Positions 3,792 to 36,911 of a stretch of 36,911 bases of DNA are shown here, piece after piece. Within the stretch, counting starts at the first letter, position 1. Each line of letters begins with the position of its first letter. Location of the stretch: IMG/VR virus record IMGVR_UViG_3300045988_065836, positions 1 through 36,911 of that record, one strand, 5' to 3'. Below the pieces are notes generated by a model, which saw only the letters and a list, made by a program, of their open reading frames with translations, was not told where the DNA came from and did not search any database. The stretch comes from a virus. Position numbers and translations under genes: made by a program.

Positions 3792-3793
3792 AA

Positions 3794-17940: not shown

Positions 17941-17967
17941 AAATCCGAAACGAAAGGAACTGATTAA

Positions 17968-18864: not shown

Positions 18865-18917
18865 CGGCGGCGCTGAACGCTGAAAAGACCGCACTGGCAG
18901 CCGCGGACTTTGACGGA

Positions 18918-19022
18918 ATGACAAAAGCCCAGCTTTTGGAATACGCCAAAGAAAACGGCATTGCCGGAGTCAGCGCCGCAATGAACAAAGCGGATATTCT
19001 GGCCGCCGTGAAGGGCCAGTGA
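18918..19022 (+). CDS. HeH/Rho-N-like small protein (start unclear)
   Basis: MTKAQLLEYAKENGIAGVSAAMNKADILAAVKGQ. The frame is open back to the capsid stop (LTAALNAEKTALAAADFDG) with no ATG or GTG and no good RBS. Confidence 0.4.
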   Translation: MTKAQLLEYAKENGIAGVSAAMNKADILAAVKGQ

Positions 19023-19036
19023 ACGGAGGGAACCGC

Positions 19037-19468
19037 ATGAACGGAATAAGCCTGTATGAGCTGCTGCGGTATCTGCGGAACTTTTTCCCCGGCCTGAAAT
19101 GGCAGTGTTTCGGCGAGGAAATCCGGGAGGGGCGCATTGCCCTTCCCGGGCTGGAAAGCGGGGACTACTACCTGATCGATGGCAGCCGGAGAAACGACGG
19201 AATCCACGTGTACGGGAACGCAGACTTGCGGAATGAAATCTATACGGGAATCATCACCGAAATCTGCGTCCCTGCCGAGGTGCTGGCCCTGCTGGATGAA
19301 ATCAACGCATGGATTGAAAAGAACCACGAGGCCGTAGAAAGCCCGTATCAAAGTGAATCTTTCGGCGGGTACTCGTACACCAAGGCAAGCGGAAATTCCG
19401 GCAGCGGTGATGGAATGAGCTGGAAGACGGTATTTGCACCGCGTCTGCGGATATGGAGGAAATTATGA
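19037..19468 (+). CDS. Putative head-tail connector/neck protein
   Basis: GGAGGG RBS. First gene of the neck module. Contains SPYQSESFGGYSYTKA, a motif seen in phage neck proteins. Confidence 0.45.
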   Translation: MNGISLYELLRYLRNFFPGLKWQCFGEEIREGRIALPGLESGDYYLIDGSRRNDGIHVYGNADLRNEIYTGIITEICVPAEVLALLDEINAWIEKNHEAVESPYQSESFGGYSYTKASGNSGSGDGMSWKTVFAPRLRIWRKL

Positions 19469-19818
19469 GTCTGCTTGACAATTTTCTGCAAGAAAAATGT
19501 GTGCTTCTAGAGAAAAAGCGAACGCCGGATGGTGCCGGTGGCTGGCTTGTGGAATGGGCAGACGGAGCGGAATTTAACGCCGCTGTCGTGCTGGATACCT
19601 CCATGCAGTCACGGATTGCAGAGAAAGAGGGCGTGACCAGCGTGTACACCGTCACCACCCGGCGCAGCACTCCCCTGTCCTTCCACGACGTTTTTCGGCG
19701 AGAAAAAGACGGCGGCATTTTCCGTGTCACCAGCAACGGGGCAGACAAGCAGTCACCCGAGTTTGGGACGCTGGACATATGCCAGGTCACAGCCGAACGA
19801 TGGGAGCTGACGAAATGA
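19465..19818 (+). CDS. Head closure / head-tail joining protein (SPP1 gp16-like)
   Basis: KKRTPDGAGGWLVEWADGAEFNAAV...VYTVTTRR...FRV fits the Phage_H_T_join pattern. GGAGGA RBS. Confidence 0.65.
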   Translation: MSLLDNFLQEKCVLLEKKRTPDGAGGWLVEWADGAEFNAAVVLDTSMQSRIAEKEGVTSVYTVTTRRSTPLSFHDVFRREKDGGIFRVTSNGADKQSPEFGTLDICQVTAERWELTK

Positions 19819-20177
19819 CGGCGGATGCGGCACTGCACCAATTTTTCAACAGTTTTAGCATTCCTGCGTTCCCGGAAACTTCCGTGCCGGATAAGCAGGA
19901 AATGCCGTATATCACATACCCATTTGTAACGTCTGAGTTTGGAGATTTGCCGGTAAATTTGGCTGTATACCTTTGGTACAAAACGGAATCAGAGGCAACA
20001 CCAACGGCAAAAGCACAGGAGATTATAAGCGCAATAGGCCGGGGCGGCTGCACTGTGCTTGTAGATGGCGGCTATATCTGGCTTTATATGGGCTCCCCTG
20101 CCCTGCGGGCCGTGCTGGACGAGGACAACAGCGTAAAACGGCGGGCGCTGAATATCACCGCCGAATATTTTCTATAG
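19815..20177 (+). CDS. Putative tail terminator/tail completion protein
   Basis: ATGA overlap. 120 aa, last neck gene before the major tail protein. Confidence 0.45.
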   Translation: MTADAALHQFFNSFSIPAFPETSVPDKQEMPYITYPFVTSEFGDLPVNLAVYLWYKTESEATPTAKAQEIISAIGRGGCTVLVDGGYIWLYMGSPALRAVLDEDNSVKRRALNITAEYFL

Positions 20178-20188
20178 GAGGGTGAACG

Positions 20189-20761
20189 ATGGGAAAAATG
20201 TTCGACAAAATTTCGTCTGATGCTTTTCAGAGCATTCAGACGAACGCGGGTGTAATTCTGAATAATTTTAACCCCGCAAATCCTACAGCCCCAGAAGATA
20301 ATGACATTGTTTGCGCCACATCGTCTGACGGTGTGCAAGCAAGCTGCGTTTACACGTATTCCGATTTTGGCGAAGACATTGCCAATGTGGAGAACAACAC
20401 CAAAGAACTGAAACAAGTTGAATCCGTCGAATGCAAGCTCAGCTTTGATATGCTTACTATGACGCCGAAAAGCGTAGCATTAGCTATTGGCCCTGCCGAT
20501 ATTGCTGATAGCAAGATTACTCCAAGGGCGGAGCTTAAACTAACGGATTTTCAGGATAAAATCTGGTGGGTTGGGCACGTCGGCGAAAACAAGATTGCAG
20601 CAATTTGCCTGAAAAACGTTCTGTCGAACGGCGGATTTAATCTACAGACCACAAAAAAGGAGAAAGGTAAAATTACCGTGGAACTTCTAGGGCACTTTTC
20701 CGTTTCCGCGCCAGACGAAGTTCCTATGGAATTTTATATTGTAGATAAGCCCGTTGGATAA
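20189..20761 (+). CDS. Major tail protein
   Basis: 190 aa, AGGAGGG RBS, directly upstream of the chaperone pair and the tape measure gene. Confidence 0.75.
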   Translation: MGKMFDKISSDAFQSIQTNAGVILNNFNPANPTAPEDNDIVCATSSDGVQASCVYTYSDFGEDIANVENNTKELKQVESVECKLSFDMLTMTPKSVALAIGPADIADSKITPRAELKLTDFQDKIWWVGHVGENKIAAICLKNVLSNGGFNLQTTKKEKGKITVELLGHFSVSAPDEVPMEFYIVDKPVG

Positions 20762-20779
20762 TCAAGGAAGGAGAAAACT

Positions 20780-21121
20780 ATGAAATTTCTTTTCGATCTG
20801 CCCAATGAACAGCTGCTCCCCGCTACCTGCGACCTTGCGGATGCTGTGGAGCAGCTTGTAAAAGCAAGTGGAATCATGGAGTTCCGGAAGGCGCCGGAGG
20901 ACGGCGAAAGCAACGAGGCAGCGGCGAAGCGGAACGCAAAAAAGATGATTTTTAAGCTGTGCAAAGAGTACCCGAAGGAGACCGGCGCAGTGCTGGATAG
21001 GCTGTGGGTGCTGGAAAGCGACAGCGAAAAGGCACCGAATGCGCTGGTTACGGCTGGAATTTTGCTGGTAAGGAAAGACGTACTGGCTTTTTTTACATCT
21101 CTGGTACGTTTGGCGGAATGA
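20780..21121 (+). CDS. Tail assembly chaperone (G-like)
   Basis: 113-aa acidic protein between the major tail and tape measure genes. Contains a T7 slippery run near its 3' end. Confidence 0.75.
   Translation: MKFLFDLPNEQLLPATCDLADAVEQLVKASGIMEFRKAPEDGESNEAAAKRNAKKMIFKLCKEYPKETGAVLDRLWVLESDSEKAPNALVTAGILLVRKDVLAFFTSLVRLAE
21088..21094 (+). other. Slippery heptamer T_TTT_TTT for a programmed -1 frameshift
   Basis: The zero-frame codons are gcT TTT TTT aca. A -1 slip reads TTT TTT tac. Confidence 0.7.
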
Positions 21122-21435
21122 TGTATCGGCGGGCCGTTTTCTCGATCTCCCCGGCTTTTTACCCTATATTTTCGTTTCGGCAACTGCTGGATGCGGTAAT
21201 GGCCGAAATTCAGCGGGAAAGTGAAAGAAAATCCTGCTATGTATATTTTGCTGATGCGGTGCAAGCAATTAGCCAAAACGTGGCGAAAATAACCGGTGGA
21301 AACTACATGGGAAAACGGCTGATCGATATTTTGGAGCCGCCGACGGATGACGGAAAGACGGCAGATGAAATTATAGCCGAGATCAGAGGAGAACTTGCAA
21401 TGATTGGAGGTGCGGAAGATGGCCGGATTGCTTGA
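21094..21435 (+). CDS. Tail assembly chaperone -1 frameshift extension (GT-like product 20780..21094 joined to 21094..21435)
   Basis: The -1 frame is open from the slippery site to 21435 (YISGTFGGMMYRR...) and overlaps the tape measure start. Confidence 0.7.
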   Translation, partial: YISGTFGGMMYRRAVFSISPAFYPIFSFRQLLDAVMAEIQRESERKSCYVYFADAVQAISQNVAKITGGNYMGKRLIDILEPPTDDGKTADEIIAEIRGELAMIGGAEDGRIA

Positions 21436-23146
21436 TCTGTTTATCAAAATCGGAGTTGATGACCAGGCGAGCAGCAAAATCGGAGGCGTGGCAAAAAAGG
21501 CATCTTCTGCGTTTTCGAAAATCGGTTCCGCCGCCGTCGGTGGAATGAAATTTGCCGCAAAAGGCGTTGCCGTCGCCGCTGGCGCAATCGCTACGCTGTC
21601 CACGGCTGCTGTAAAAACTTACGCGGATTATGAGCAGCTTGTGGGTGGCGTTGAAACGCTGTTTGGCGCTGGTGGAAAAAGCCTGGCTGAGTACGTCAAT
21701 GACGTTGGGAAATACTCCCCTGAGATCACAAAACAATACAATGATCTGATGGCGGCGCAATCCAAAGTCATGGACGATGCGGACGCGGCCTATAAAACAG
21801 CAGGCCTATCGGCCAACGACTATATGAAGACCGTCACCGGCTTTGCTGCCGCGCTGAACAGCAGCCTGGGCGGAAACACGCAAAAGGCCGCTGAATATGC
21901 CAATATGGCCGTTGTGGATATGGCCGACAACGCCAATAAGATGGGCACCAGCATGGAGAGCATCCAGAATGCCTATCAGGGTTTTGCAAAGCAAAACTAT
22001 ACCATGCTGGATAATCTAAAGCTTGGCTACGGCGGCACAAAAACCGAAATGGAACGGCTGCTGGCTGACGCAAGCAAAATTTCCGGGAAGAAATTTGATC
22101 TGTCGTCCTACGCTGACGTTGTGGAGGCTATCCACACGATCCAAGATGAAATGGGCATTACCGGTACAACGGCAAAGGAGGCAGAAACCACCATTTCCGG
22201 CTCTGTGAACTCCATGAAGGCAGCGTGGCAGAACTGGCTTACTGGGCTTGGGAACGGCGATGCGGACATCGGGAAGCTGACCGAAAACCTGGTTGAATCC
22301 GCGCAAACCGTTGTAAGCAATGTAATGCCCGTTGTCGGCCAAGTGCTGACTTCGTTGGAAAGCGTTGTAACGGAACAAGCACCTGGAATTATAGACACCG
22401 GGCTATCTTATATTCTAGATGCAGCCCCACAGCTGTTAGCCATGGGTGGACAGCTGATTAGCGCACTGGTTAGCGGACTGCTTACAAATTTGCCGCAGAT
22501 CATGGACGCCGGAACGCAATTGATAACGATGCTATGCAGCGGAATGCAAAATTCTGCGTCGCAGCTGCCGGGAATCATAACGCAAATCATAACGTCCATA
22601 GTTAGTTTCTTGGTTGCCAACGCACCGCAGATTTTAACGGCTGGCGTTACGCTGATTTTGGCGCTGATACAGGGCATCGTCGAATCAATACCGGCTATTG
22701 TGCAGGCGATACCGCAGCTGATAGATGGGATTGTAAACGCTTTTTCGAACGCTTCCGGGCAGATATTGTCCATCGGTTCACAAATCGTCGACGATATCAT
22801 TGATGGCATTTCCAGCGCATGGGGCGGGCTTGTAAGCTGGTTTAATGGGCTTTGGGATAGCTTGTTCGGCGGGCGAAGCGTTAACGTTGGCGTGACCACC
22901 AGTGGAGGCGGCGGAGGCGGGCGAGCCATTGGCATGGACTACGTGCCGTATAACGGTATGCCGGCTGTTCTGCACCGAGGCGAAGCGGTTTTGACCAGCT
23001 ACGAAGCCGACCAGTGGCGGCGGGGCCGCAGCGGCGGAAATGGGCAGGGCGTGACCATTGTGCAGAACATTCAGAGCGTTCCACAGACGCCGGTACAGCT
23101 GGCGGCAGCGACGGCGGCATATTTTGAACAGGCGTGGTGGATTTGA
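21419..23146 (+). CDS. Tape measure protein
   Basis: 575 aa, GGAGGT RBS. Helical and Gly/Ala-rich with hydrophobic repeats. Conserved position. Confidence 0.88.
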   Translation: MAGLLDLFIKIGVDDQASSKIGGVAKKASSAFSKIGSAAVGGMKFAAKGVAVAAGAIATLSTAAVKTYADYEQLVGGVETLFGAGGKSLAEYVNDVGKYSPEITKQYNDLMAAQSKVMDDADAAYKTAGLSANDYMKTVTGFAAALNSSLGGNTQKAAEYANMAVVDMADNANKMGTSMESIQNAYQGFAKQNYTMLDNLKLGYGGTKTEMERLLADASKISGKKFDLSSYADVVEAIHTIQDEMGITGTTAKEAETTISGSVNSMKAAWQNWLTGLGNGDADIGKLTENLVESAQTVVSNVMPVVGQVLTSLESVVTEQAPGIIDTGLSYILDAAPQLLAMGGQLISALVSGLLTNLPQIMDAGTQLITMLCSGMQNSASQLPGIITQIITSIVSFLVANAPQILTAGVTLILALIQGIVESIPAIVQAIPQLIDGIVNAFSNASGQILSIGSQIVDDIIDGISSAWGGLVSWFNGLWDSLFGGRSVNVGVTTSGGGGGGRAIGMDYVPYNGMPAVLHRGEAVLTSYEADQWRRGRSGGNGQGVTIVQNIQSVPQTPVQLAAATAAYFEQAWWI

Positions 23147-23997
23147 TGGCGTATAACAATTTATCTAAACTATTCCGGTATGTCGGGGCTGATGGACAAG
23201 AAATTATCTTTGACTACACCAACGGATATCTGATCAGCAAGCCTACCGGAATCGATACGCTGAGCGTCAGCGTGAATGAATCCTACGGCATCAATCAGGT
23301 AGGTACAAGCGTCAGCTCGGAGCACGTGGAGAGCCGCCCGGTGACCATCACCGGGCGGGTCGTGGGAGACTCACAGGAGCAGCGGAAAAAGCGGTTGCTG
23401 GATGTGATACGGCCAGGGGCTGGGCGACTGTACTGTGACGACTACTATCTGGATGTACGGACGACGGAAACCCCAACCGTGGGGCCGGATAGGAGCCATG
23501 CGCAATTCCAAGTGTCGTTTCTGGCTCCGCACCCATATTGGTGCAGGGAAAACAAGGAAACCAGAACACTAATGGGCGTTGAGAAACTGTTCAAATTTCC
23601 GTGGAATATCTCGAAACCCTATCAGTTCGGACGGATGCAGCAGAAGAAATTCGTGAACATAAGAAATCAGGGGCAAGCGGATATTCCGTTTACGGTGGCC
23701 ATAATCGCCATGGATGCGGTCAGCGTCCCTGTGATACAGAATATCGTCGATGGGAAGTTTCTGCGGATTAACAAGAACATGGTCGCCGGAGAGAGAATTG
23801 TTATCGAAATCACCCACAGCCGCACATATGTAACGTCTTCTGTCGATGGGGACTGTCGTGGGGCGTTGGATATCGAAAGCAGCCTGTTTCGGCTGGCCCC
23901 CGGAGACAACGTGCTGAAGCCAACGGCAACCAGCGGGCTTGAAAACCTGCAAATGGAAATCACGTTTGCGCCTGAAATGATTGGGATGAGTGTATGA
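23146..23997 (+). CDS. Distal tail protein (Dit, Sipho_tail-like)
   Basis: Overlaps the tape measure stop. Contains the pattern ISKPTGIDTLSVSV...VTITGRV...LDVRTTETP. Confidence 0.78.
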   Translation: MAYNNLSKLFRYVGADGQEIIFDYTNGYLISKPTGIDTLSVSVNESYGINQVGTSVSSEHVESRPVTITGRVVGDSQEQRKKRLLDVIRPGAGRLYCDDYYLDVRTTETPTVGPDRSHAQFQVSFLAPHPYWCRENKETRTLMGVEKLFKFPWNISKPYQFGRMQQKKFVNIRNQGQADIPFTVAIIAMDAVSVPVIQNIVDGKFLRINKNMVAGERIVIEITHSRTYVTSSVDGDCRGALDIESSLFRLAPGDNVLKPTATSGLENLQMEITFAPEMIGMSV

Positions 23998-25064
23998 GCA
24001 TCGAGATATACCCCAGCGACTTTTCCACCCGGTACGGCATTGGGTGCGCTATCAGCCTGTCGGAGACGCTGGAATACAACGACGTGGGAAAACTGACGTT
24101 GGTTGCGGATGCGGATGAGTACAACATCAAGGCTATCCGCAACGGGAACATTGTGTACGACACTGAGCTGAAAGCGACGTACATCATTGTTACGACCAAA
24201 ATCGAAACAGGCAGTAACCGAATCACCGCAAACGGGTATAGCGCCGACTGGCTGCTGAATCTACGAGTTGCCGCCGGCGACACAAGCCACAGGAAGATAA
24301 CGAATATCGAGAGCGGCGTGTATGATGTGGTCAATGCCAACCTGAGAGGGTTGGAAAAGCGCATCCAGACGGCGGCGATCAAGGGCCTGACTGAGGTGTA
24401 TCAGGGCGACGATGAGACCACGGCGGACGTGGATGAAAGCATTGTATACGGCGGGCAGCTGCTGGACGCCATTACCCCAGTGCTGGAATATGGCGAACTG
24501 GGGCGGCGGATGATCTGGGACGATGCAACCAAAAAATGGACGTTTGAAATCTACAAGGGTGTTGACCGCACTGAGGGCATCCACGCCGCTGTGTTTTCCG
24601 CCGAGCAGGGCACGGCAAAAAATCTGGTTATCACGCAGGACGACAAGGACTGGTACACAACGGCGTTTGTACGCTGGATGTGGGAAGGGGCTGCGCAGAT
24701 GCACCTTGTAGGGACTTGCGGTGCGAACGCCAGAGAACTGTGGGTGGAATCGTCTGTATCTGTCGAAGTGGAGAAGGGCGAGGACTATGCGACTACGAAG
24801 AAAAAGGCCATAGCTGAGGCTATGGACGCTTTGAAGGAGCAGAACAAGCGGCAGAGCTTCACGGTGACCATTGCACCGGAGGATTTCGGGACGTTGTATG
24901 GAATGGGCGATATCGTGTCGTGCGTATCCGTGCTGCACAACATCAAATTTACGGCCAGAGTGACCGGAATCAAATGCACTGGCGATATCCGGGAGCGGAA
25001 AATGGAAATCGTTCTGGGCGAACCGGAAATGACGATAATGGAGTTGATCAAACGAAATGGCTGA
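23994..25064 (+). CDS. Tail tip/minor structural protein (siphovirus Gp37-like)
   Basis: ATGA overlap with Dit. 356 aa with an N-terminus typical of Gp37-like tail proteins. Confidence 0.6.
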   Translation: MSIEIYPSDFSTRYGIGCAISLSETLEYNDVGKLTLVADADEYNIKAIRNGNIVYDTELKATYIIVTTKIETGSNRITANGYSADWLLNLRVAAGDTSHRKITNIESGVYDVVNANLRGLEKRIQTAAIKGLTEVYQGDDETTADVDESIVYGGQLLDAITPVLEYGELGRRMIWDDATKKWTFEIYKGVDRTEGIHAAVFSAEQGTAKNLVITQDDKDWYTTAFVRWMWEGAAQMHLVGTCGANARELWVESSVSVEVEKGEDYATTKKKAIAEAMDALKEQNKRQSFTVTIAPEDFGTLYGMGDIVSCVSVLHNIKFTARVTGIKCTGDIRERKMEIVLGEPEMTIMELIKRNG

Positions 25065-25953
25065 AATCAGAAGTTTTCCAAATAACCAAGACACCTACAT
25101 TGGGGCCGAGGAGGTCATGCGGTGGCTGCATGGACGAACATCCGGCGTTTTTGCGGCGGCTGGGAACGCTGCTGTGGCTGCTCTGGAAACGCCCGGCATG
25201 GCGGTAACAGTGACGGACGGCACGGGATGGCTTACAGATGCAGGCGGAAACGGCGTGGTATGGTGGAATGATACCGAGAAGACCACCGGCGCAAAATTGA
25301 TACTGAACGTGGAAATGGCCGATGCAGTGCTTGACCGTATCGACCGGGTCATTGTGGAATGGGAAACTACAAACTATGTTGATCTGCCGGAAATCAAGGT
25401 GCTGAAGGGCACAGCGTCCAGCACAGCGGAAGCACCGGCGCTGACCAATAACAGCACTGTGCGGCAGATCAGCCTTGCACGGGTGGCCGTAGGGGCTGGC
25501 ATCACGGCGGTGACGGCCAGCATGATCACGGACGAGCGGCTAGATCCCTCCGTCTGCGGACTGGTAACGGATGGCCTATCCATTGACACCACAACAATCA
25601 ACGCCCAATATACGGCATTACTGGACAACCTGGCCCAGGAGCTTGCCAACTTAGAAGCCGGTACGGCGGTGGAGCTGAAAAAGCTTGCATTCGCCAATAC
25701 GGCGGTTGCTGTATCAACCTGGGCCGAAGACAGCACATATGAGGATTACCCGTACCGAGCAGCAGTGGCGCTGAGCGGCGTAACGGCGGCGATGATCCCC
25801 GAGGTGGTGTTCGGGTTGGCGGCTATGAGCGAGAACAGCTTTGCACCAGTGGCGGAGTGCTACAACGGCGGCGTATACATCTACGCTGCGGACGTGCCGG
25901 AATCCACAATCACGATACCCACAATTATCTGTTGGAGGGGGGCGGCTGCATGA
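25057..25953 (+). CDS. Tail/baseplate structural protein
   Basis: Overlaps the upstream gene. Contains ITDERLDPSVCG, a motif common in Clostridial phage fibre-like proteins. Confidence 0.5.
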   Translation: MAEIRSFPNNQDTYIGAEEVMRWLHGRTSGVFAAAGNAAVAALETPGMAVTVTDGTGWLTDAGGNGVVWWNDTEKTTGAKLILNVEMADAVLDRIDRVIVEWETTNYVDLPEIKVLKGTASSTAEAPALTNNSTVRQISLARVAVGAGITAVTASMITDERLDPSVCGLVTDGLSIDTTTINAQYTALLDNLAQELANLEAGTAVELKKLAFANTAVAVSTWAEDSTYEDYPYRAAVALSGVTAAMIPEVVFGLAAMSENSFAPVAECYNGGVYIYAADVPESTITIPTIICWRGAAA

Positions 25954-26663
25954 TCGGACGCACAAATGCGGGATTTGGCGGCGGTGGCGGCGGGCTGCGA
26001 GTAACCGTAGGGCTTACCGCCCCTGTGAACCCACGGGAGAATACCGTGTGGGTAAAATCCGACAAGGCCGGGAAGAAGTACGTCTTTGCGGAGGACGCGC
26101 CGGAAGCGCCTTTTGAGGGGCTGATCTGGTTCAGTGCCACGGGGGACGGGATCATCACGCAGGTCAACGTCTATGCCGATGGCGCGTGGAACCGGGTGGA
26201 TGCGTATATGTACCTGTCCGGGGCCTGGGTGCACATTGCAAGCTCGATCGTGTACCTGTACAACAAAGGCGACACCTGCGATGCGGTGTCTGGCGGCTGG
26301 GAAGCAGCGCAATGGTACATAAACAGTGGATCTACCGGATCAGTCCCCAGACTTACGGAGGGAGCCAGCAGCCTTGCGGTTAGCTATACCGGAAAAGACG
26401 GCCTGTTGGACGCCCGCGCATCGGTAAACCTGGATAAGATCAGAAAGGTGTGCGCTGTGATCAGCGACAACGGCAGCGCCAAAAGCGCCCTTGCTGTGTC
26501 TGCGGGTTCCGGCGCAATCGGATTCCCACCAAATGTTAAGGCGTCCAAATCCCTTTTCAACGGTACTGTGGAACTGGACGTGAGCGCTTTGAGCGGGAAT
26601 CACTTTGTGGGCTTCTTGGTACTTGGGAACTTTACCGTTGAGGCCGTTTGGCTATCCTACTGA
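25950..26663 (+). CDS. Tail structural protein (hypothetical)
   Basis: ATGA overlap at 25950. Begins MIGRTNAGFGGGGGGL. 237 aa. Confidence 0.5.
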   Translation: MIGRTNAGFGGGGGGLRVTVGLTAPVNPRENTVWVKSDKAGKKYVFAEDAPEAPFEGLIWFSATGDGIITQVNVYADGAWNRVDAYMYLSGAWVHIASSIVYLYNKGDTCDAVSGGWEAAQWYINSGSTGSVPRLTEGASSLAVSYTGKDGLLDARASVNLDKIRKVCAVISDNGSAKSALAVSAGSGAIGFPPNVKASKSLFNGTVELDVSALSGNHFVGFLVLGNFTVEAVWLSY

Positions 26664-26678
26664 TGCGGGAGGCGCGAT

Positions 26679-27020
26679 ATGCAAATTTATATTGATGCTG
26701 ATTTTAAGTGCCATACTGCCCTGAAGGAGGGACGGACAGCGCTTGAAACCGATTTTTTTGAGGACATGTGCGCCGCCTATATCGAGGGCTACCGCTTTGT
26801 CCCGGCCGGGAAGACCTGGACGGCAGCGGACGGCACGGTGTATTCCGGCGAAATGATTACTCCCTGGAAGCCCTGGGCGGAGCTGGACGCCGCCCAACGT
26901 GCCTATGAGCGGGAGCGCGCCGCCGCGCTGGAGGCCCAGAACGCCGAGCTATTGGATGCCATGGCCAGTATGGTGGAGGACGTTTACAACCAAGATGTTG
27001 CAGTAATTGAGGGGGAGTGA
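26679..27020 (+). CDS. Hypothetical tail-module protein
   Basis: GGGAGG RBS. 113 aa. Confidence 0.5.
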   Translation: MQIYIDADFKCHTALKEGRTALETDFFEDMCAAYIEGYRFVPAGKTWTAADGTVYSGEMITPWKPWAELDAAQRAYERERAAALEAQNAELLDAMASMVEDVYNQDVAVIEGE

Positions 27021-27069
27021 CGGTATGTTTACCGTATCCATAAATATTTTTCATTGGAGGAACTTTATT

Positions 27070-27261
27070 ATGTACAAGTCTATGAAAATCTTAATCACAA
27101 GACATTTTTACAAGGCCGGCGAGATCGCCCAGAACAAGCTGGATGTGTTCTTCGCCTGCAATCGGCTGAGTGACGACGAATACACCGAGCTGACGGCCCT
27201 GGTGGAGACGGTCTACGGCGCGGATGCATCCGCAGAGGACACCCCCGAGGCCGAGGCGTAA
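27070..27261 (+). CDS. XkdX-like small protein
   Basis: GGAGGA RBS. 63 aa, with FFACNRLSDDEYTELTALV resembling XkdX-family proteins that precede fibre genes. Confidence 0.45.
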   Translation: MYKSMKILITRHFYKAGEIAQNKLDVFFACNRLSDDEYTELTALVETVYGADASAEDTPEAEA

Positions 27262-27279
27262 AGGAAAGGAGGCAGCGGC

Positions 27280-27690
27280 ATGGTGCCGAAGCAAGTTGTG
27301 CCGGACCGGCGCGGACTGGTAGAAATCGGAAAAATCAAGGAAAACCTGGTAACGGAGGTTGCCTTTGACTGCGCTGATCTGGGCGACGGAAGCGGGGCCT
27401 ATGCCGTTGTCTTTCAGCGGCCCAAGGACGCGGCCCCCTACCCCGTGGCGTTCCGGGCCGAGTGGCCGAGCATCGTCTGGGTGGTCCAGGCCGCCGACAC
27501 TGCCAAGCCCGGGACCGGCAAGGTGGAAATCCGGTGGTATGGTGACGGGCACCAGGTGGGCAAATCCAAGACCTACATGGTACGCATTACCGACGGGCTC
27601 CCCGACCCCACCGAGGCCCCGGAAGCCTGGGAGGGCTTTATGGGGGAGGTTGCCCGGAATGCCCAGGCGGCGCAAACCGCAGCGGGATAG
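27280..27690 (+). CDS. Tail fibre, N-terminal segment, ending at an in-frame TAG
   Basis: AAAGGAGG RBS. The Ig-like anchor region runs into an Ala/Gln-rich coil (ARNAQAAQTAAG) and stops at TAG 27688. Confidence 0.75.
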   Translation: MVPKQVVPDRRGLVEIGKIKENLVTEVAFDCADLGDGSGAYAVVFQRPKDAAPYPVAFRAEWPSIVWVVQAADTAKPGTGKVEIRWYGDGHQVGKSKTYMVRITDGLPDPTEAPEAWEGFMGEVARNAQAAQTAAG

Positions 27691-28722
27691 GCCAAGACCA
27701 ACGCAGACGGCGCGGCGGCATCCGCCGGGATTGCCCAGGATGCAGCCGCGGAGGCCGGAAAGTTGGCCGGGGCTGCCGGAGGGGCTGCCAACGCTGCGGC
27801 GAGTGCTGCATCCGCTGCATCCAGCGCCCAGGCCGGGGCAGAGACCGCCGCACAGAACGCCCGGGCGGCTGCGGAAGCCGCCGAGACGGCCAGGAGCGGC
27901 GCAGAGGCGGCGAAACTTGCCGCTGCGGAATCGGCCACGGGTGCGGCAGGAAGCGCGGAAGCAGCCGCACAGGCTGCCCAGAAGGGCGAAAACCTGTACA
28001 ATCAAGTAAAAGCCGATTTGGCCGCCGGGAAGCTGAAAGGTGAAAAGGGCGATAAGGGAGACCCCGGCAAGGACGCGCCGCAGATTGACGATAGCGTGGT
28101 ATCCGCCGAAAACCCGTGGAGCAGCCGCCATATTGTCGAGACGCTGTGCCCGCCCATTGCAGAAACCGGCAACCCCGTGACGTGCTACCCGGTAGCTGGG
28201 TATCCGCTGGGGGTGGTGGCATCGTTTGCGCCCACCCAGGCGGGAGAGGGCGAGCCGTACCCGGCGGGAGGAGGGCCGCAGATGCTGGATATATCCAGGT
28301 GCACGGCCACTGTGGGCAAGCCCTACGGCCTTACAATCACCATAGACGGAGACGTTATCAAGTGCAGCGGCGTGCCGTCTGCGGAGGTGGCAGAGAAAAA
28401 GGTCTACTCTTTCGCCGTGGCTTCGTCCGCCCAGGAAGAGCTGCGGGGAAAGGGGTACAAGGTCACGGCGTGGCCCATCAATGGCAAAGTGTCCAACGCC
28501 TGGGGCCTGCGGACGGCTGACGAGTCATCGTTGGCGATTGCCGCCGAGCTGTCACCTGGGGTAGACACGGATATACAGCTGCGGCTGATGGTATCCAAGG
28601 ATACGCCCACATCCTACGCTCCGTACGAAAACATCCGGCCGATCAGCGGGCGGGATAGCGTCAGCGTGGAGCGGTGCGGGGGGGCAGCTGCTAAGCTATT
28701 CGCAACCAATCGAAACGGATAG
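27691..28722 (+). CDS. Tail fibre, central segment (same frame as 27280..27690; possible restart at TTG 27763)
   Basis: The frame is open immediately after the TAG (AKTNADGAAASAGIAQDAAAEAGK...). Contains an Ala-rich coil and a GEKGDKGDPGKD collagen-like stretch. GGAGG lies 8 nt before TTG 27763. Confidence 0.7.
   Translation, partial: AKTNADGAAASAGIAQDAAAEAGKLAGAAGGAANAAASAASAASSAQAGAETAAQNARAAAEAAETARSGAEAAKLAAAESATGAAGSAEAAAQAAQKGENLYNQVKADLAAGKLKGEKGDKGDPGKDAPQIDDSVVSAENPWSSRHIVETLCPPIAETGNPVTCYPVAGYPLGVVASFAPTQAGEGEPYPAGGGPQMLDISRCTATVGKPYGLTITIDGDVIKCSGVPSAEVAEKKVYSFAVASSAQEELRGKGYKVTAWPINGKVSNAWGLRTADESSLAIAAELSPGVDTDIQLRLMVSKDTPTSYAPYENIRPISGRDSVSVERCGGAAAKLFATNRNG
28678..28684. repeat. 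Poly-G tract (G7) at the frame junction inside the tail fibre locus
   Basis: tgcGGGGGGGcagc, read directly. Loss of one G fuses 27691..28684 to 28685..29836. Confidence 0.95.
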
Positions 28723-29836
28723 CGACATTGTTGTAGGCCTTGAGTCTCCTGCGAGGACGCTGCTCTTGGCGAATTCCGTGCGAGGCCAGAAGCTCGAGGT
28801 ATCTTTCGAGCTGGAAACAGCAAACGTCGAATGGATGGATGCCGATGAAGTTTGGCGGCGCAGAATTGGATTTGAAGCGACTATCACAAAAGCATCGGAT
28901 GGACGGGTGAATTATAACTTTGCTTGCTGGATTGCATCGAACAGCGACGAGTTCAAGGCAACTGGAAAGTTCACGGTGAAAAAAGTGATTACCCTGTTTG
29001 ATGATAGGTATACAGCGTCAGGTGGATTTAAGTTCTATGTGCAAAACATGAAATCTGGGCGAGTAAAAGCAACCAATTTGTCCATCAAATTGATGCAAAA
29101 TACCGCCTACGCCCCCTACCGTGGCGATACGCTGGATTTGCAGCTGCCGTCTACCATCTACGGTGGCAGCTTGGATGCGGTGACGGGAGAGGGGGAACAT
29201 AAATGGGGACTGGTAACCTTTGACGGGAGCGAGGCGTGGACTATAGGCGGACTTGCTGCCGACAAAAGAGACTGGTATTACGTATCCCCGAAAATTGTCG
29301 ATGCAATCAACGAAATGCCGAAATCTGGGAACGAAATATGCAGCCATTACCCACATTATGATGTGTCGAACAACAATACAGGCAAGGGCTGCGCATTGGT
29401 GTGGGGGGCCTTCCGGGTGAGATGGGGTGATATAATCCCCGAGAACACAGATGCCTGGAAATCCTACCTCGCCGCCCAGGCCGCAGCCGGAACCCCGGTG
29501 CAAATTGCGTACAAGCTGGCAACCCCCACTCCATTCACGGCTACGGGGAACGGGCCCATCATGCCGCTGGAAGGCGAGACCAACACCATCATGACGGATG
29601 CTGATACCGTGACTGTCACCGGGCGGGCAGACCCGGCCCACGCCATTGCGGCGCTGCAAGCACAGTTGGCCGTTGCCACGCAGCAGCTTGCCGAGACGCA
29701 GGCGGCGATGGTGGACACCACGGCTATGGCGGTGGACTATATCTATCAACAGGATTTGGAGGATATTGGACTGGAGGAGGTTGACGACAGTGACAATCAA
29801 ACAGATACAGAGCCTGTTGACGTACCTGGGGTATAA
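28685..29836 (+). CDS. Tail fibre, C-terminal (receptor-binding?) segment in the +1 frame (possible restart at TTG 28766)
   Basis: The +1 frame is open from the G7 tract (QLLSYSQPIETDSDIVVGLESPARTLLLANSVRGQKLEVSFELE...) to TAA 29834-29836. Confidence 0.7.
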   Translation, partial: QLLSYSQPIETDSDIVVGLESPARTLLLANSVRGQKLEVSFELETANVEWMDADEVWRRRIGFEATITKASDGRVNYNFACWIASNSDEFKATGKFTVKKVITLFDDRYTASGGFKFYVQNMKSGRVKATNLSIKLMQNTAYAPYRGDTLDLQLPSTIYGGSLDAVTGEGEHKWGLVTFDGSEAWTIGGLAADKRDWYYVSPKIVDAINEMPKSGNEICSHYPHYDVSNNNTGKGCALVWGAFRVRWGDIIPENTDAWKSYLAAQAAAGTPVQIAYKLATPTPFTATGNGPIMPLEGETNTIMTDADTVTVTGRADPAHAIAALQAQLAVATQQLAETQAAMVDTTAMAVDYIYQQDLEDIGLEEVDDSDNQTDTEPVDVPGV

Positions 29837-30392
29837 TCCCGGGGCCGTGGACGGGGCAGACGGGGCCAACACCCAGGCGGCGGTAAAGCGTTTTCAGCAG
29901 GCCGAGGGGCTAGGCGTGGACGGGATCGCGGGCAAGGCGACCCAGGCGGCGCTCCTGGCGGCGGTTGCGGCTGGGCGGGTGTATGTGCCGCCTGGCGATA
30001 CTAGCGGGACTGGGGCCACGTCCGTGGGCGCTGGGGCGGACTGGTGGGGGGACATTAAATACTTTACCAGGGACGAGCCATACATTGCCTGCTCCTGCGG
30101 CAAGTGCGGCGGCTTCCCGGTGGAGCCTGCGGAAAAGCTGATGCGGCTTGCGGATGCTGTGCGGGAGACGGCGGGAAAGCCCATGATTCCAACCAGCACA
30201 GTGCGGTGCAAGACCCACAACGCAGAGGTTGGGGGAGTGTGGAACTCCCGGCACCTGCTGGGGCACGCTATGGATTTCCGCATTCCGGGGCTGTCGGCGG
30301 CTGAGGTGCTGGGCATCGTGCGGCAGCAGAAAAACGTGGTGTACTGCTACGCGATTGATGCGCAGCATGTGCATATGGATATTGGGAATTAG
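29790..30392 (+). CDS. Endolysin: PG_binding_1 domain plus M15-family zinc peptidase
   Basis: GTG 29790 follows GGAGGAGG. LGYNPGAVDGADGANTQAAVKRFQQAEGLGVDGIAG is the peptidoglycan-binding domain. CKTHNAEVGGVWNSRHLLGHAMDF...HVHMD is the M15 metal site. Confidence 0.85.
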   Translation: MTIKQIQSLLTYLGYNPGAVDGADGANTQAAVKRFQQAEGLGVDGIAGKATQAALLAAVAAGRVYVPPGDTSGTGATSVGAGADWWGDIKYFTRDEPYIACSCGKCGGFPVEPAEKLMRLADAVRETAGKPMIPTSTVRCKTHNAEVGGVWNSRHLLGHAMDFRIPGLSAAEVLGIVRQQKNVVYCYAIDAQHVHMDIGN

Positions 30393-30405
30393 GAGGAAGA
30401 AGAAA

Positions 30406-30705
30406 TTGAACGAATGGCTGAAAACAGCCGTTACCATTCTGGTAACGCTGCTGGGTTCGGCGGGCTTCTGGGGGTATCTGGAGGCCCGCCGGACGAAGAA
30501 AAGCGCAAATACCCGGCTGCTGGTGGGTATTGCCCACGACCGTATCGTTTATCTGGGGATGAAGTACATCGAACGTGGATACATCACCAAAGACGAATAT
30601 GAAAACCTCAACGACTACTTATACGAGCCATACGCCGCCGCTGGTGGAAATGGCTCTGCAAAAAGAGTTATGGATGAAGTACACAAAATACCGTTGCATA
30701 ATTAA
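30406..30705 (+). CDS. Membrane protein in the lysis cassette (TTG start)
   Basis: AGGAGG (30391-30396) lies 9 nt before TTG 30406. N-terminal TM segment TAVTILVTLLGSAGFWGYL. Confidence 0.5.
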   Translation: MNEWLKTAVTILVTLLGSAGFWGYLEARRTKKSANTRLLVGIAHDRIVYLGMKYIERGYITKDEYENLNDYLYEPYAAAGGNGSAKRVMDEVHKIPLHN

Positions 30706-30718
30706 GGAGGAAAACAAA

Positions 30719-30967
30719 ATGTACGAACTGAAAGACACTATCGAGGGCATGACAAGCGCTGACTATAAGGAGCGCTTTAAGGCCGAGTACCAGCAGGTAA
30801 AAATCCGGTACGACAAACTGGACGCAATGACCGTGAAGTACGAGGCAGGAACGTTGCCGTTCACCCCCAACTGCTCGCTCGATCTTCTGAAGGAGCAGAA
30901 GAAGTACATGGGGAATTACATTCGTTGCCTGAAAATCCGCGCTGAGATCGAGGGCATTACGCTTTAA
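30719..30967 (+). CDS. Hypothetical small protein in the lysis cassette
   Basis: AAGGAGG RBS. The 82-aa product begins MYELKDTIEGMTSADYKERFKAEYQQ. Confidence 0.6.
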   Translation: MYELKDTIEGMTSADYKERFKAEYQQVKIRYDKLDAMTVKYEAGTLPFTPNCSLDLLKEQKKYMGNYIRCLKIRAEIEGITL

Positions 30968-30980
30968 GGAGAAATAAAAA

Positions 30981-31238
30981 ATGATTAACTGGACTGTGCG
31001 TATCAAGAACAAGAACTTCTGGCTGGCGGTAATTCCCGCCGTACTGCTGCTGATTCAGGCCGTGGCCGCCGTGTTCGGATTCACCTTGGACCTGGGCGAC
31101 ATCGGCAATAAGCTGATTGCTGTGGTAAACGCGGTATTCGGCGTGCTGGTGGTGCTGGGCGTGGTCGTTGATCCTACCACGGCGGGCATCTCTGATAGCA
31201 AGCAGGCACGCGGGTATAATTGGCCGAAGGAGGATTGA
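30981..31238 (+). CDS. Holin (phage phi-LC3 family)
   Basis: MINWTVRIKNKNFWLAVIPAVLLLIQ...VVDPTTAGISDSKQARGY matches the phi-LC3 holin pattern. Confidence 0.82.
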   Translation: MINWTVRIKNKNFWLAVIPAVLLLIQAVAAVFGFTLDLGDIGNKLIAVVNAVFGVLVVLGVVVDPTTAGISDSKQARGYNWPKED

Positions 31239-31245
31239 CGGCTGA

Positions 31246-31482
31246 GTGGACAAATCCCGGATTAACCGGGTGATCGTGGAAGAATTTGACCGGCTCGCAT
31301 TTTTGACCGAGCTGGAAAAGGGAATCCTAATCACCCGGGCCGCCGGGAAAAGCCAATATTGGCAAACGCAGAAATACAATGTGTCCCAAGTCACAGTTAC
31401 CAGGGCCGTCCAACGACTGCAACGGAAATACGATGCAGTAAAGGGGTTTAGTGCCATACTCCCGGACGACCTGATTATTTGA
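31246..31482 (+). CDS. Sigma-70 region-4-like HTH protein
   Basis: GTG start follows GAAGGAGGA. LTELEKGILITRAAGKSQYWQTQKYNVSQVTVTRAVQRLQRKY. Confidence 0.5.
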   Translation: MDKSRINRVIVEEFDRLAFLTELEKGILITRAAGKSQYWQTQKYNVSQVTVTRAVQRLQRKYDAVKGFSAILPDDLII

Positions 31483-31506
31483 TCGCAAAATGACGATTTT
31501 TTAAGC

Positions 31507-31548
31507 AAAAACAGGCGAAACGATGCTGATTCGTTCGCCTGTTTTTTT
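31507..31548 (+). terminator. Strong rho-independent terminator ending the late/lysis operon
   Basis: CAGGCGAA(A)CG (31512-31522) / CGTTCGCCTG (31532-31541), then a T7 run. An A-run lies upstream. Confidence 0.8.
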
Positions 31549-31573
31549 GTTACCATAAAAGCGGAAAGGGGCG

Positions 31574-31960
31574 ATGCCTATGGGCGAATTCCACAGTTTC
31601 AATCCAAACCCCCGGGCAGCAAAAGTCGGGGATTGCGCCGTCAGAGCAGTTGCAAAGGCCCTGGGTATCAGCTGGTACGAGGCATATACCCTACTTGCGG
31701 CTGAGGGCCTGGAACAATGCGATATGCCCAGCGCAAACAACGTATGGGGCGCGGTGCTTCGAAAAAACGGATTCCGGCGAGCGGCAATACCGGCAGAATG
31801 CCCGGACTGCTACACCGTGCGGGATTTTATCCGGGAATACCCAGCGGGAACATACGTTGTCGCCCTGAAAAACCACGTCGTAACTGTCTGCGACGGCGAA
31901 TTATACGATACCTGGAACTCAATGGACGAAAACCCAATCTATTTTTGGAGGCGTGAATGA
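31574..31960 (+). CDS. Putative papain-like cysteine peptidase fold protein
   Basis: Candidate catalytic residues are Cys in VGDCAVRAV, His in KNHVVTV and Asp in YDTWNS. The start may instead be 31580. Confidence 0.45.
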   Translation: MPMGEFHSFNPNPRAAKVGDCAVRAVAKALGISWYEAYTLLAAEGLEQCDMPSANNVWGAVLRKNGFRRAAIPAECPDCYTVRDFIREYPAGTYVVALKNHVVTVCDGELYDTWNSMDENPIYFWRRE

Positions 31961-32952
31961 TGGCAAACCCCTATATGCAGCCCAATTACCAAGGCGGCTA
32001 TTTCCAGCCGAACTATTTCAGCCCGCAAATGCAGCCGATGCAGCAGACGCAAATGCCGATGCAGGGACAGCAGGCCCCGCAGGACGACCGGAATGTGCTG
32101 CAATCGGTTATCCGTGGTCACAACGCAAAGCCCATGGTATTCCGCAGCTTCAACCCGCCTATGAGCATGAGCAATTGGGCAAACCAGTTTATCACAGAGC
32201 CAGATACCCAGGCTCTTACATTCCACACTGACTATACTATGATTCCGCCGGACTGGCTGGGAGATGCCTTTATTCTGGAAGCGGAGCGCCTAAAGGCCAC
32301 AAACCCCAAAGCATTCGAGCATGAGTATTTGGGCATTGCTACCGGCACAGGTGCGGAAGTATTCCCGGCACTGGAAGTGCGGGAGATCACCCCCGAAGAA
32401 ATCCAGAACATGGAATATTTCTTTTACGGCGTGGATTTCGGTTTTGCCGCTGATCCGGCGTGCTTCCTCCGGTGCAGCTATGACCGGAAGCATGAAACCA
32501 TTTACCTGCTGAACGAAATCTACAAGCGTGGCCTCTCGAACAGGCAACTTGCGGCAGAAATCAAGCCCCTTATTGATGGGGACAGCCCCGGCAGCGTCTA
32601 CAACGAGTTCTACCATGAATTTCTCCAAGGCAGCCCGCCACCCGTCTACTGCGACGCAGCAGAACCGAAAAGCATTGCCGACCTCCGGGACAGCGGAATC
32701 AAAAAAGCCCTGGCCTGCCACAAGGAGCCGGGATGTGTAGAATACCGGGTGAAGTGGTTGCAGCACCGGCGCATTGTCGTAGACCCAGCCAGAACGCCCA
32801 ACGCTGCAAGGGAACTTGCAAACTACGAGTACGAGAAGGATAAGGACGGCAACATTCTAAGCCGTCTACCAGACAAAGACAACCACAGTATTGACAGCCT
32901 GGCCTATGCCCTGGATAGGGAAATCTACCACCGCAAGGGCCAGAGCGCATAA
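31957..32952 (+). CDS. Second, N-terminally truncated terminase-large-subunit homologue (nuclease domain only) with a Q/P/Y-rich N-terminus
   Basis: FRSFNPP...HTDY...NPKAFEHEYLG, GVDFGFAADP, VYCDAAEPKSIADLR, DKDNHSIDSLAYAL parallel the C-terminal half of a PBSX TerL. There is no Walker A or B. The first 45 aa are MMANPYMQPNYQGGYFQPNYFSPQMQPMQQTQMPMQGQQAPQDD. Confidence 0.8.
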   Translation: MMANPYMQPNYQGGYFQPNYFSPQMQPMQQTQMPMQGQQAPQDDRNVLQSVIRGHNAKPMVFRSFNPPMSMSNWANQFITEPDTQALTFHTDYTMIPPDWLGDAFILEAERLKATNPKAFEHEYLGIATGTGAEVFPALEVREITPEEIQNMEYFFYGVDFGFAADPACFLRCSYDRKHETIYLLNEIYKRGLSNRQLAAEIKPLIDGDSPGSVYNEFYHEFLQGSPPPVYCDAAEPKSIADLRDSGIKKALACHKEPGCVEYRVKWLQHRRIVVDPARTPNAARELANYEYEKDKDGNILSRLPDKDNHSIDSLAYALDREIYHRKGQSA

Positions 32953-32968
32953 GGAGGAACTTATACAT

Positions 32969-33280
32969 ATGGGCTATTTACGAATCAAGTGCTACTATTG
33001 TGGCGGAACATGGGAAGTTTACCACCGGGATCTTCATAGCCGGTACAAGAAAGCCAGAGAATGCCCGCATTGCTTCCAAAAAATAGACGAGCAGACATGG
33101 GACAATCAGATTTTCCCGGCATACAACGCACTGGATGATGCGAATAGAGAGCTATTCAAAGACCATCTCGGCCACCATGTACCGCTCTTTGAAGTCAGCT
33201 ATGAATCTAATACGATTTTCAAAAATGCCAAGAACTGGCCCAGCTACTCAGACGATGATGATTCATCGGATATTGAGTAA
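32969..33280 (+). CDS. Zn-ribbon protein with an acidic tail
   Basis: AAGGAGGA RBS. CYYCGG...CPHC. The C-terminus is SYSDDDDSSDIE. Confidence 0.6.
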   Translation: MGYLRIKCYYCGGTWEVYHRDLHSRYKKARECPHCFQKIDEQTWDNQIFPAYNALDDANRELFKDHLGHHVPLFEVSYESNTIFKNAKNWPSYSDDDDSSDIE

Positions 33281-33300
33281 AGTGGTCGAAATCGACCACT
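33281..33300 (+). terminator. Perfect 9-bp palindrome hairpin right after the cassette stop
   Basis: AGTGGTCGA aa TCGACCACT followed by TT. The T tail is weak. Confidence 0.35.
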
Positions 33301-33512
33301 TTAATGCCCGCCACAGCAGCGCCCTGGGCCTCACAGTCTGGGGCGCTTTCTACGCGAAAAAGCGGGCCACCGAAGTGACCCGCCAGCGCTCCGAGAATTA
33401 GGTGGGGCGACACTCCCACATCTCCTTACGAGGGTTGGTCGATGTGTTTTATATTGTTCAGTTTCTTGTAATAATGTTTTGACTTTTTAATGATTCTCAG
33501 GAAAAACAAGCT

Positions 33513-33543
33513 AAAAGGCGCTCTTTTTTTGAGTGCCTTTTTT
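33513..33543. terminator. Bidirectional terminator downstream of the minus-strand island gene
   Basis: AAAA-GGCGCTC-TTTTTTT-GAGTGCC-TTTTTT: a 7-bp stem including one G-T pair. Confidence 0.7.
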
Positions 33544-33602
33544 CAGCGTTTACTACCGTGTTCACACACCTGTTAGGCAAATGTTAGGCAAGCGAATAAC
33601 CT

Positions 33603-34484
33603 CTACCAATTCTTAATCCGCACATACTTAGGGCGTGCCTCTGGACTGTTAAACAGAAAATTTTGATACTCTAGTAACAGCTCAACGGATGCACCCTTTT
33701 TTATTTTTTCCTTGTACTCCGAACACTTTTCACAAAACGAATTAAATGTATCTGTGTATTTAGGAGTAGCCCTGTATTCATCAGCTCTCCACCTAAGTCT
33801 TTCGTACTCTGCCAGCCTCTTTTTCTCCAATTTGTCCTTTATTGCTTTCACAGCCTCCGCACAGGAATAATCTCCGTATTCAGGGTAAGGCGAATGGCGA
33901 CTACAATACTTTACCTTTAAGTTCGATGTCAAAAAATATCTTCCACAATGAGCACATTTGGAGATGGAATATCTATTGTAAACACAACAGTGTACCAATG
34001 AAAAAACAAAATCTACCATTGTGCGGCATGAATAATACCGGAACACATTGGGGTCAAACTCAGACTCCTCATTAGCCTGTTTATCAAGTATGCGCCATTT
34101 GTCTAACTCTTTTGAGAATCTTTCAAAAGCCAATAGTGTTAGGATGGAGTTAATATTTCTATACCTGTCTGATGATTCACCTTTTTTGTATTCGATGCTG
34201 ATTCCATAAAAAGATCGGAAATCATCAAAATTCTCCAGATTAGCCTTTTTCAGGTAATCAGTTTTCTCAAAATAATCAGATAGCAGCTGCCATGCATCCC
34301 TTGGGTCTGCATAATTAAAGAACTCGTTCGACTGCACACCATGTTCAAATCGTTCGGTTAGCTTCTCGTATATTTCACATAAAAATGTTTCAGCGGAATA
34401 TTGGTAAGCACTTTTCGTTGAAAACAAATAGACCGTTCCACTCCGTATCTCTAAACTGACAACCGACTCAGCTTCTTTTGCCAT
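33603..34484 (-). CDS. Cys-rich 293-aa protein in an AT-rich island (reminiscent of DUF6076-type proteins of Clostridial mobile elements)
   Basis: Minus-strand ATG at 34484 follows AGGAGAAGG. Contains KCAHCGRYF...KYCSRHSPYPEYGDYSCAEAV. Its composition is far more AT-rich than the surrounding genome. Confidence 0.6.
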   Translation of the reverse strand: MAKEAESVVSLEIRSGTVYLFSTKSAYQYSAETFLCEIYEKLTERFEHGVQSNEFFNYADPRDAWQLLSDYFEKTDYLKKANLENFDDFRSFYGISIEYKKGESSDRYRNINSILTLLAFERFSKELDKWRILDKQANEESEFDPNVFRYYSCRTMVDFVFSLVHCCVYNRYSISKCAHCGRYFLTSNLKVKYCSRHSPYPEYGDYSCAEAVKAIKDKLEKKRLAEYERLRWRADEYRATPKYTDTFNSFCEKCSEYKEKIKKGASVELLLEYQNFLFNSPEARPKYVRIKNW

Positions 34485-34609
34485 GGTTCCTTCTCCTGAA
34501 ATGTTTCGTATTTTCAATTCTAATTATATCATCGAAAAATACCAAAATCAACAACAAAAAGTGAATTAAAATGAAGTCACCAAACGAAAGGAAAGGAGCC
34601 TTTACGAAA

Positions 34610-34804
34610 ATGGAAAATACAATCCCCGTTTTTTTATCTATCCGTGAAACGGCGAAATCTGGAATTCTTACAGAGTATCGGTTACGCTGCATGGAAAAGT
34701 CTGGAGAACTGCCCTGTATCTACGCTGGCAAAAAATGCCTCATCAATGTTGACTTGCTCATTGCACAGCTCAATGATTTACAGAAAGTAGGTACTCAAAA
34801 ATGA
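34610..34804 (+). CDS. Excisionase-family HTH protein
   Basis: AAAGGAG RBS. FLSIRETAKSGILTEYRLRCMEKSGELPCIYAGKKCLINVDLL. Confidence 0.7.
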   Translation: MENTIPVFLSIRETAKSGILTEYRLRCMEKSGELPCIYAGKKCLINVDLLIAQLNDLQKVGTQK

Positions 34805-35022
34805 CCCAATGTGAACGCATTCTCCGCCACCTCCAGGACGGTAACACACTGACCCAGGCCTAGGCCTTTTTGGAGTATGGAGTCGGCCGACTGTCTAGCC
34901 GAATATGTGATCTCCGGCGGGCGGGCTACCCTATCAAGGGCGAGTTCGTCACCCAGAAAAACAGATACGGGGAGCCTTGTACATTTGTTCGGTATTCGCT
35001 GGATGAAACCAAGGGGGCTTGA
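34801..35022 (+). pseudogene. HTH_39-like winged-helix gene interrupted by an in-frame TAG at 34861
   Basis: MTQCERILRHLQDGNTLTQA*AFLEYGVGRLSSRICDLRRAGYPIKGEFVTQKNRYGEPCTFVRYSL. ATGA-coupled at both ends. The stop lies inside the conserved motif. Confidence 0.6.
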
Positions 35023-35024
35023 TT

Positions 35025-35510
35025 ATGGCCGCTCTGAGAGATAAACATCCATCCTGGTTCAAGCTGAAAACCGAGCGGCGGCAGCTTATCAAAGAGTTGC
35101 CACCGGAAACGGCAGTCACCGTTCTTCTAGCCTGTCTGGATTATTTGGAAATCGGAAGTTTTCCTGATTCCATGCATCCGATTGAGAGAATCGCCGCTTC
35201 TGCTTTTCTTCCTGACTTGGAAGAAGCCTGGGCAAAGTATACCAAACGGGTATCAAATGGCTCAAAGGGTGGTGCCCCCAAGGGCAATAAAAACGCCCAG
35301 AAAACAAAACAACCATACGGTTGCATTCGCCCCCATATGGGGCCATTCGGGGCAGAAGTAGAAGAAGACCCCCTAAAGGGGGATTCTTCTACTAACTGGG
35401 GTGTAGATAATAGGGACAGGGAACCGCCCCTTTGTGGGGGCGGCCCCCCTACCCGGTTCTACTTTGACGATTCCGGAAACCTTGTTGACAGGGGGGATGA
35501 TTGCTTATGA
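35025..35510 (+). CDS. Hypothetical protein upstream of DnaB (second DUF6291-like N-terminus; possible replication accessory protein)
   Basis: SWFKLKTERRQLIKELPPETAVTVLLACLDYLEIGSFPD resembles the N-terminus of 4798..5523. ATGA-coupled to dnaB. Confidence 0.55.
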   Translation: MAALRDKHPSWFKLKTERRQLIKELPPETAVTVLLACLDYLEIGSFPDSMHPIERIAASAFLPDLEEAWAKYTKRVSNGSKGGAPKGNKNAQKTKQPYGCIRPHMGPFGAEVEEDPLKGDSSTNWGVDNRDREPPLCGGGPPTRFYFDDSGNLVDRGDDCL

Positions 35511-36894: not shown

Positions 36895-36911
36895 GCCGTC
36901 ACCCCGCCCCG
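36793..36911. repeat. Terminal direct repeat copy 2 (119 bp)
   Basis: Exact copy of 1-119. It contains the 3' end of the small ORF 36760..36894 and the start of the terminator hairpin. Confidence 0.95.

Follow-up and report, generated by a model that had tools for sequence, protein, structure and literature searches.

The closest precedent for the locus described here is the side-fibre gene stf of phage lambda PaPa, which is frameshifted there and intact in Ur-lambda. The stf frameshift abolishes the side fibres and leaves plaque number unaffected; lambda is viable without them since another tail-tip protein provides the essential receptor binding (PMC12617516). Laboratory strains of T5 that have no side fibres are a second example (PMC12617516). 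The window analysed here, which is the whole 36,911-nucleotide stretch of the IMG/VR virus record IMGVR_UViG_3300045988_065836, resembles lambda PaPa in that a point lesion splits a long fibre gene into adjacent ORFs on the same strand while the relatives are intact. It differs in combining an amber codon with a frameshift and with a second amber that is polymorphic, in coming from a human-gut metagenome rather than a laboratory stock, and in that the accessory role of its fibre is suggested by analogy. BppU (ORF48) of phage TP901-1 offers a possible likeness of another kind, namely a predicted N-terminal beta-sandwich followed by a helix, in a gene placed after those of Dit and the tail-tip protein. 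However, BppU holds a separate receptor-binding protein, whereas the anchor of the present gene is fused to a long coil, a collagen-like stretch and distal modules. Finally, with a TAG in frame within a late structural gene, this human-gut phage recalls the TAG-recoded (genetic code 15) gut phages, which have many interrupted late genes and encode suppressor tRNAs (bioRxiv 10.1101/2021.08.26.457843; PMC9523058). We read the window as containing a genuine though unremarkable nonsense mutation, in a tail-fibre gene that has suffered several lesions.

To judge from its sequence, the region 27280-29836 (+ strand) is one ancestral siphophage tail fibre or baseplate gene that now lies in three pieces. 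Its repaired reading comprises about 851 residues, the relatives measuring about 650-840 aa, and is laid out as an N-terminal BppU-like anchor, an Ala-rich coiled coil, a short collagen-like stretch, a conserved stem and swappable distal modules. Fragment 1 (27280..27690, 136 codons plus the TAG) holds the BppU-N-like beta-sandwich anchor domain and the initial turns of the Ala-rich coil. Fragment 2 (27691..28683) continues in the same frame with the coiled coil, the short collagen-like GEKGDKGDPGKD and the conserved stem modules as far as ...ENIRPISGRDSVSVERCGG. Fragment 3 (28685..29836) lies in the +1 frame and contains the distal modules, which are probably receptor-binding, and the conserved C-terminal end ...DTEPVDVPGV. 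The fibre gene follows SPP1_Dit (23134-23997) and a Sipho_Gp37 tail-tip protein (23994-25064), and a PG_binding_1/Peptidase_M15 endolysin is encoded directly downstream. It thus occupies the tail-tip location, after Dit and Tal, that is expected of a BppU-N-anchored protein.

None of the three fragments has a match in Pfam, whether to BppU_N or to any other family. An AlphaFold (AF2) model of residues 1-136 (pLDDT 77.8) nevertheless shows a beta-sandwich, to which a helix is joined from residue 114 on. With this model, the best Foldseek matches in the PDB are phage baseplate proteins, including TP901-1 BppU/ORF48 (4v96, 3uh8), at probabilities of 0.99-1.0 and with weak E-values of only 2e-3 to 7e-3. 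In BFVD, tail-fibre and BppU-domain proteins are retrieved at E-values of 1e-15 to 1e-5, those named 'BppU domain protein' at around 1e-5. On the strength of the predicted fold, fragment 1 is most likely a baseplate anchor. The label 'tail fibre' used in the first-pass annotation is a fair one for the gene, supported by a marginal match of fragment 2 to PHROG 3279 tail fiber (E = 8e-4), collagen repeats (PF01391) in many homologues, the position of the gene and the fold match of the N-terminal domain; the description of the gene as essential in that annotation is not established.

The other ORFs of the window tile without gaps and are intact, and the other tail-tip genes are present. The first 119 nt of the window (1-119) are identical to the last 119 nt (36793-36911), such that the contig assembles as a circle. 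The repeat can be read as an assembly overlap implying a circular or concatemeric genome; in the ENA scaffold that covers part of the window (L001) it is followed by about 200 nt (19644-19843) without a match in the window. The scan of the ORFs revealed no integrase in those covered, and the whole looks like a replicating phage rather than a decaying prophage. Several other features of the window deserve mention. A T TTT TTT slippery heptamer (21088-21094) is located in the overlap of the ORFs 20780-21121 and 21001-21435, upstream of a 580-aa ORF (21404-23146) that probably encodes the tape measure, and looks like the usual site of -1 programmed frameshifting of tail assembly chaperones (G/GT). 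A second terminase-like ORF (31957-32952, and 31574-31960) comes after the lysis genes. It matches the Terminase_3C nuclease domain, but its match to the Terminase_3 ATPase domain is confined to the end of the profile (positions 113-200 of 201). As a full Terminase_6-type large subunit is also present (12540-13787), the second ORF is perhaps what is left of a truncated gene, or a nuclease put to a new use. In the early region, adjoining ORFs at 6919-8156 with a partial PAPS_reduct match (profile positions 131-174 only) and a weak Radical_SAM match may form a nucleotide- or DNA-modification module.

The amber codon at 27688-27690 shares the frame of the ATG at 27280, as read from the translation of the + strand of the window. 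This start is preceded by GGAGG (27268-27272) at a spacing of 7 nt. Past the TAG the frame is open from 27691 to the next stop, a TAG at 28720-28722, and the translation runs from ...ARNAQAAQTAAG directly across the stop into AKTNADGAAASAGIAQDAAAEAGKLAGAAGG... The first-pass annotation had correctly reported that the TAG and the following ORF lie in one frame with no other stop and, in a translation identical to ours, that the coil runs on through the interruption. It had missed a +1 frameshift in a run of seven G residues (28678-28684), which interrupts the following ORF in its turn, and had not seen that the true gene reaches 29836.

The 480-aa read-through translation, used as the query against a large protein collection, gave more than 2,500 matches, of which the best 120 were aligned at the column of the TAG. 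All 120 have a sense codon there and none a stop. Glutamate occupies the column in 75 of them, including every one with the context QAAQTAAG-E-AK, the remainder, whose coil is divergent, having S, N, A, R or K. These best 120 matches are mostly single proteins of about 650-840 aa (647-839 aa in 110 of them) which cover 96-100% of the query. The top matches are 81-94% identical, and fragment 2 aligns continuously with the five proteins P0001-P0005 within this same range. The best homologues run on beyond ...ENIRPISGRDSVSVERCG for roughly 330-380 further residues, and several share the terminal ...DTEPVDVPGV of the window ORF 28766-29836. Since more than 100 homologues align continuously across the position, a chance side-by-side placing of two ORFs is excluded. 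The alignment with related fibre proteins that had been proposed as a check therefore gave continuous single proteins across the stop, and among the best 120 homologues no relative encodes two separate proteins with a boundary at this place.

At the DNA level, the four closest intact relatives (L003, L037, L038 and L039) all have GAG at this codon. In the gene of P0002 the stretch is GGA GAG GCC AAG, in the window GGA TAG GCC AAG, a single G/T difference in the TAG codon. A degenerate DNA pattern requiring TAG found no such allele in IMG/VR and JGI metagenome contigs. As far as these sequences go, the TAG is a private nonsense change, by a single G-to-T at 27688, of a GAG codon for Glu (codon 137). 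Among annotated phage genomes, INPHARED contained just two weak partial matches, to unannotated faecal phage contigs, which shed no light on the junction. A first scan of genome contigs for the host gave no confirmed match, and a second gave one, at 59% identity and confined to the N-terminal domain, in a Lachnospiraceae metagenome bin; the host is uncertain.

The second lesion sits at the conserved ERCG, where the fibre stem gives way to the variable distal modules; there the G7 run (28678..28684, + strand) leaves the last 383 codons (28685-29836) out of frame. The frame-0 ORF terminates in ...VERCGGAAAKLFATNRNG, while the +1 frame from 28685 reads QLLSYSQPIETDSDIVVG... The frameshift was located through the large protein search, in which two proteins, P0121 and P0131, read across the junction in a single frame as ERCGEQLLSYSQ[SP]IETDSD (also given as VERCGEQLLSYSQ[SP]IETDSDI...). 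It was not revealed by the IMG/VR relatives of fragment 3, which cover just its C-terminal half. The DNA of these two proteins (L009) reads TGT GGG GAA CAG CTG CTA and the window TGC GGG GGG G CAG CTG CTA, from which comparison we conclude that the run contains one extra base, a +1 frameshift. It is the only run of at least seven G or C residues in the window. The ORF finder lists fragment 3 only from a TTG at 28766, and the C-terminal ~120 residues of this fragment match the ends of P0001 and P0002. Given as peptides, the context of the stop is AAG-x-AKTNADGAAASAGIAQDAAAEAGK and the repaired G7 junction is ERCGG-QLLSYSQPIETDSDIVVGLESPAR.

A third lesion emerges when the window is compared with other assemblies. 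Over 19,632 bases, the ENA scaffold L001 differs from the window (17280-36911) by one mismatch, a C to A at 28223 which turns a TCG (Ser) at 28222..28224 (+ strand; 10943-10945 of the scaffold) into a second in-frame TAG of the same fibre gene. Two Logan contigs of run ERR1136729 flank this very codon, one stopping at 28215 and the next resuming at 28224, which suggests that both alleles are present in one sample. The second of these contigs also carries the G7 run, and the 136-aa product is encoded on the ENA scaffold and on the Logan contig L002 as well. Overall, the window shares its TAG at 27688 and its G7 run with two other assemblies, the ENA scaffold and the Logan contigs of ERR1136729; the three may all stem from one read set.

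This agreement bears directly on whether the phage truly has a GAG and an in-frame G run, with the errors created by low coverage or strain mixing. Other members of the fibre family are frameshifted or truncated in metagenome assemblies (L010 around 560-660, L011 around 3700-3830, P0063, P0009 and P0117), which could mean that the gene is truly disrupted time and again, or that its modular and strain-variable make-up is difficult to assemble. Moreover, the frameshift falls on a homopolymer located at a recombination junction. The lesions of the window are G>T/C>A changes, a type that also arises from oxidative damage when libraries are prepared. Yet damage artefacts are of low frequency and seldom reach the consensus, and both the TAG and the G7 run recur in assemblies made by different assemblers. 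The accessions point to short-read data. We regard a sequencing or assembly artefact as improbable and infer that the lesions are real in the DNA.

If the lesions are real, the stop could still be decoded, or the gene could work in two parts; together with a nonsense mutation, these were the options put forward in the first-pass annotation. Only the nonsense mutation has held up, on the evidence of the 120 best homologues, which all read through, and of the GAG in the four closest relatives. Decoding of the TAG, be it through an amber suppressor of the host, weak natural read-through or recoding driven by the phage, would give short and long fibres, and can appeal to the unbroken sequence of the coil and to the documented recoding of TAG to Gln in late genes of gut phages (bioRxiv 10.1101/2021.08.26.457843; PMC9523058). 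In contrast to those phages, where many genes are hit, a single gene is affected here: ARAGORN found no tRNA gene in the window, including any suppressor with anticodon CUA, and the coding strand of the window has no other pair of long ORFs joined by TAG. TAG is also a normal terminator in this phage, ending three other genes (7392-8156, 19779-20177 and 29646-30392, the endolysin included); the 43 tiled ORFs use 24 TGA, 15 TAA and 4 TAG. Global recoding under code 15 is rejected on these grounds. The relatives have Glu rather than the Gln of recoded genes at this codon and never a stop, which speaks against programmed read-through as well, and any read-through product would end at 28722 because of the frameshift at 28678-28684, without the distal modules. 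Decoding in any of these forms is thus very unlikely. A split gene would consist of two functional cistrons, the 136-residue anchor and a fibre initiated at the TTG at 27763, which would assemble non-covalently. Two-protein arrangements of this kind, an anchor plus a receptor-binding protein, exist in lactococcal phages as BppU plus BppL, and the GGAGG noted earlier 8 nt ahead of the TTG is indeed there (27750-27754). However, this candidate internal restart (27750..27765, + strand) is coding sequence for A-E-A-G-K-L. Of the four intact relatives, P0002, P0003 and P0004 have an identical GGAGG-N8-TTG, and P0001 has CGAGG; the string is thus not peculiar to the split state, which argues that it has not evolved as a start site. 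The relatives consistently keep a single ORF without a boundary here, and a product from 27763 would have no anchor, miss 25 residues of the coil and still be cut by the frameshift. A split gene is accordingly extremely improbable.

We consider it very likely, instead, that the fibre gene has been knocked out in this phage lineage by the amber at codon 137 and the G7 frameshift, with the second amber in part of the population. Two marks of an inactivated fibre gene are found: intact homologues are one continuous protein across the break, and simple mutation of the ancestral sequence (G-to-T) is accompanied by further lesions (the added base in G7 and the polymorphic amber). An ancestral single gene at 27280-29836 would have suffered a G-to-T that made its Glu codon 137 a TAG and, at 28678-28684, an extra base that threw its distal part out of frame, the second amber at 28222-28224 being carried by part of the same phage population. 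Translation from the ATG at 27280 would end at 27688 and yield a 136-residue anchor stub without a fibre, presumably the only significant product from the native start. This BppU-N-like stub may still dock on the baseplate, while fragments 2 and 3 would be untranslated or translated at trace level at most. A replicating phage must then manage without the fibre protein, which was counted against a knock-out. The phage is probably propagating without this fibre; by analogy with lambda stf and the T5 side fibres it would tolerate the loss, and the fibre would be accessory.

In comparison with the relative L003, dN/dS is 0.04 upstream of the TAG and 0.24 downstream. The gene has thus been under purifying selection over most of its divergence, which indicates that the lesions are recent. 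Downstream of the TAG, changes private to the branch of the window number 3 synonymous and 5 non-synonymous, the TAG change included. With the TAG left out, the 3 to 4 of the window compare with 38 to 15 for the four relatives taken together, a difference which is not significant at these small numbers (p = 0.19), and relaxed selection on this branch was not retained. The private changes of the window (27070-28680) comprise 13 G>T/C>A of 35, against 22 of 114 in the relatives L003, L037, L038 and L039 (Fisher p = 0.04, with small numbers), and both ambers belong to this class. The excess is a possible signature of oxidative damage or of the MutY type, and the host in which the phage grew might have been under oxidative stress or deficient in MutY/MutM. 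Mutagenesis of the DGR type was rejected as the cause of the clustered changes, since these are G>T/C>A and not adenine-directed.

For annotation, the ORFs 27280-27690, 27763-28722 and 28766-29836 are to be treated as one disrupted tail-fibre gene and not as three proteins, nor are they evidence for an alternative genetic code. One fibre gene in one gut sample has been hit by an amber, by a frameshift and by a second, polymorphic amber, while the remainder of an apparently circular, replicating genome is intact. That these lesions are convergent selected knock-outs rather than neutral decay is a tentative proposal, and we think it rather unlikely. If it were true, loss of the fibre would be advantageous in the gut, for example through lower adsorption in dense, structured host populations; such an effect is reported for the lambda side fibres in a biofilm-like setting (PMC2762979). 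Should the multi-hit pattern indeed reflect selection, it would parallel, in nature and within the gut, the way in which laboratory lambda and T5 have lost their side fibres, and would add modestly to the understanding of how phages in dense communities adjust their rate of adsorption.
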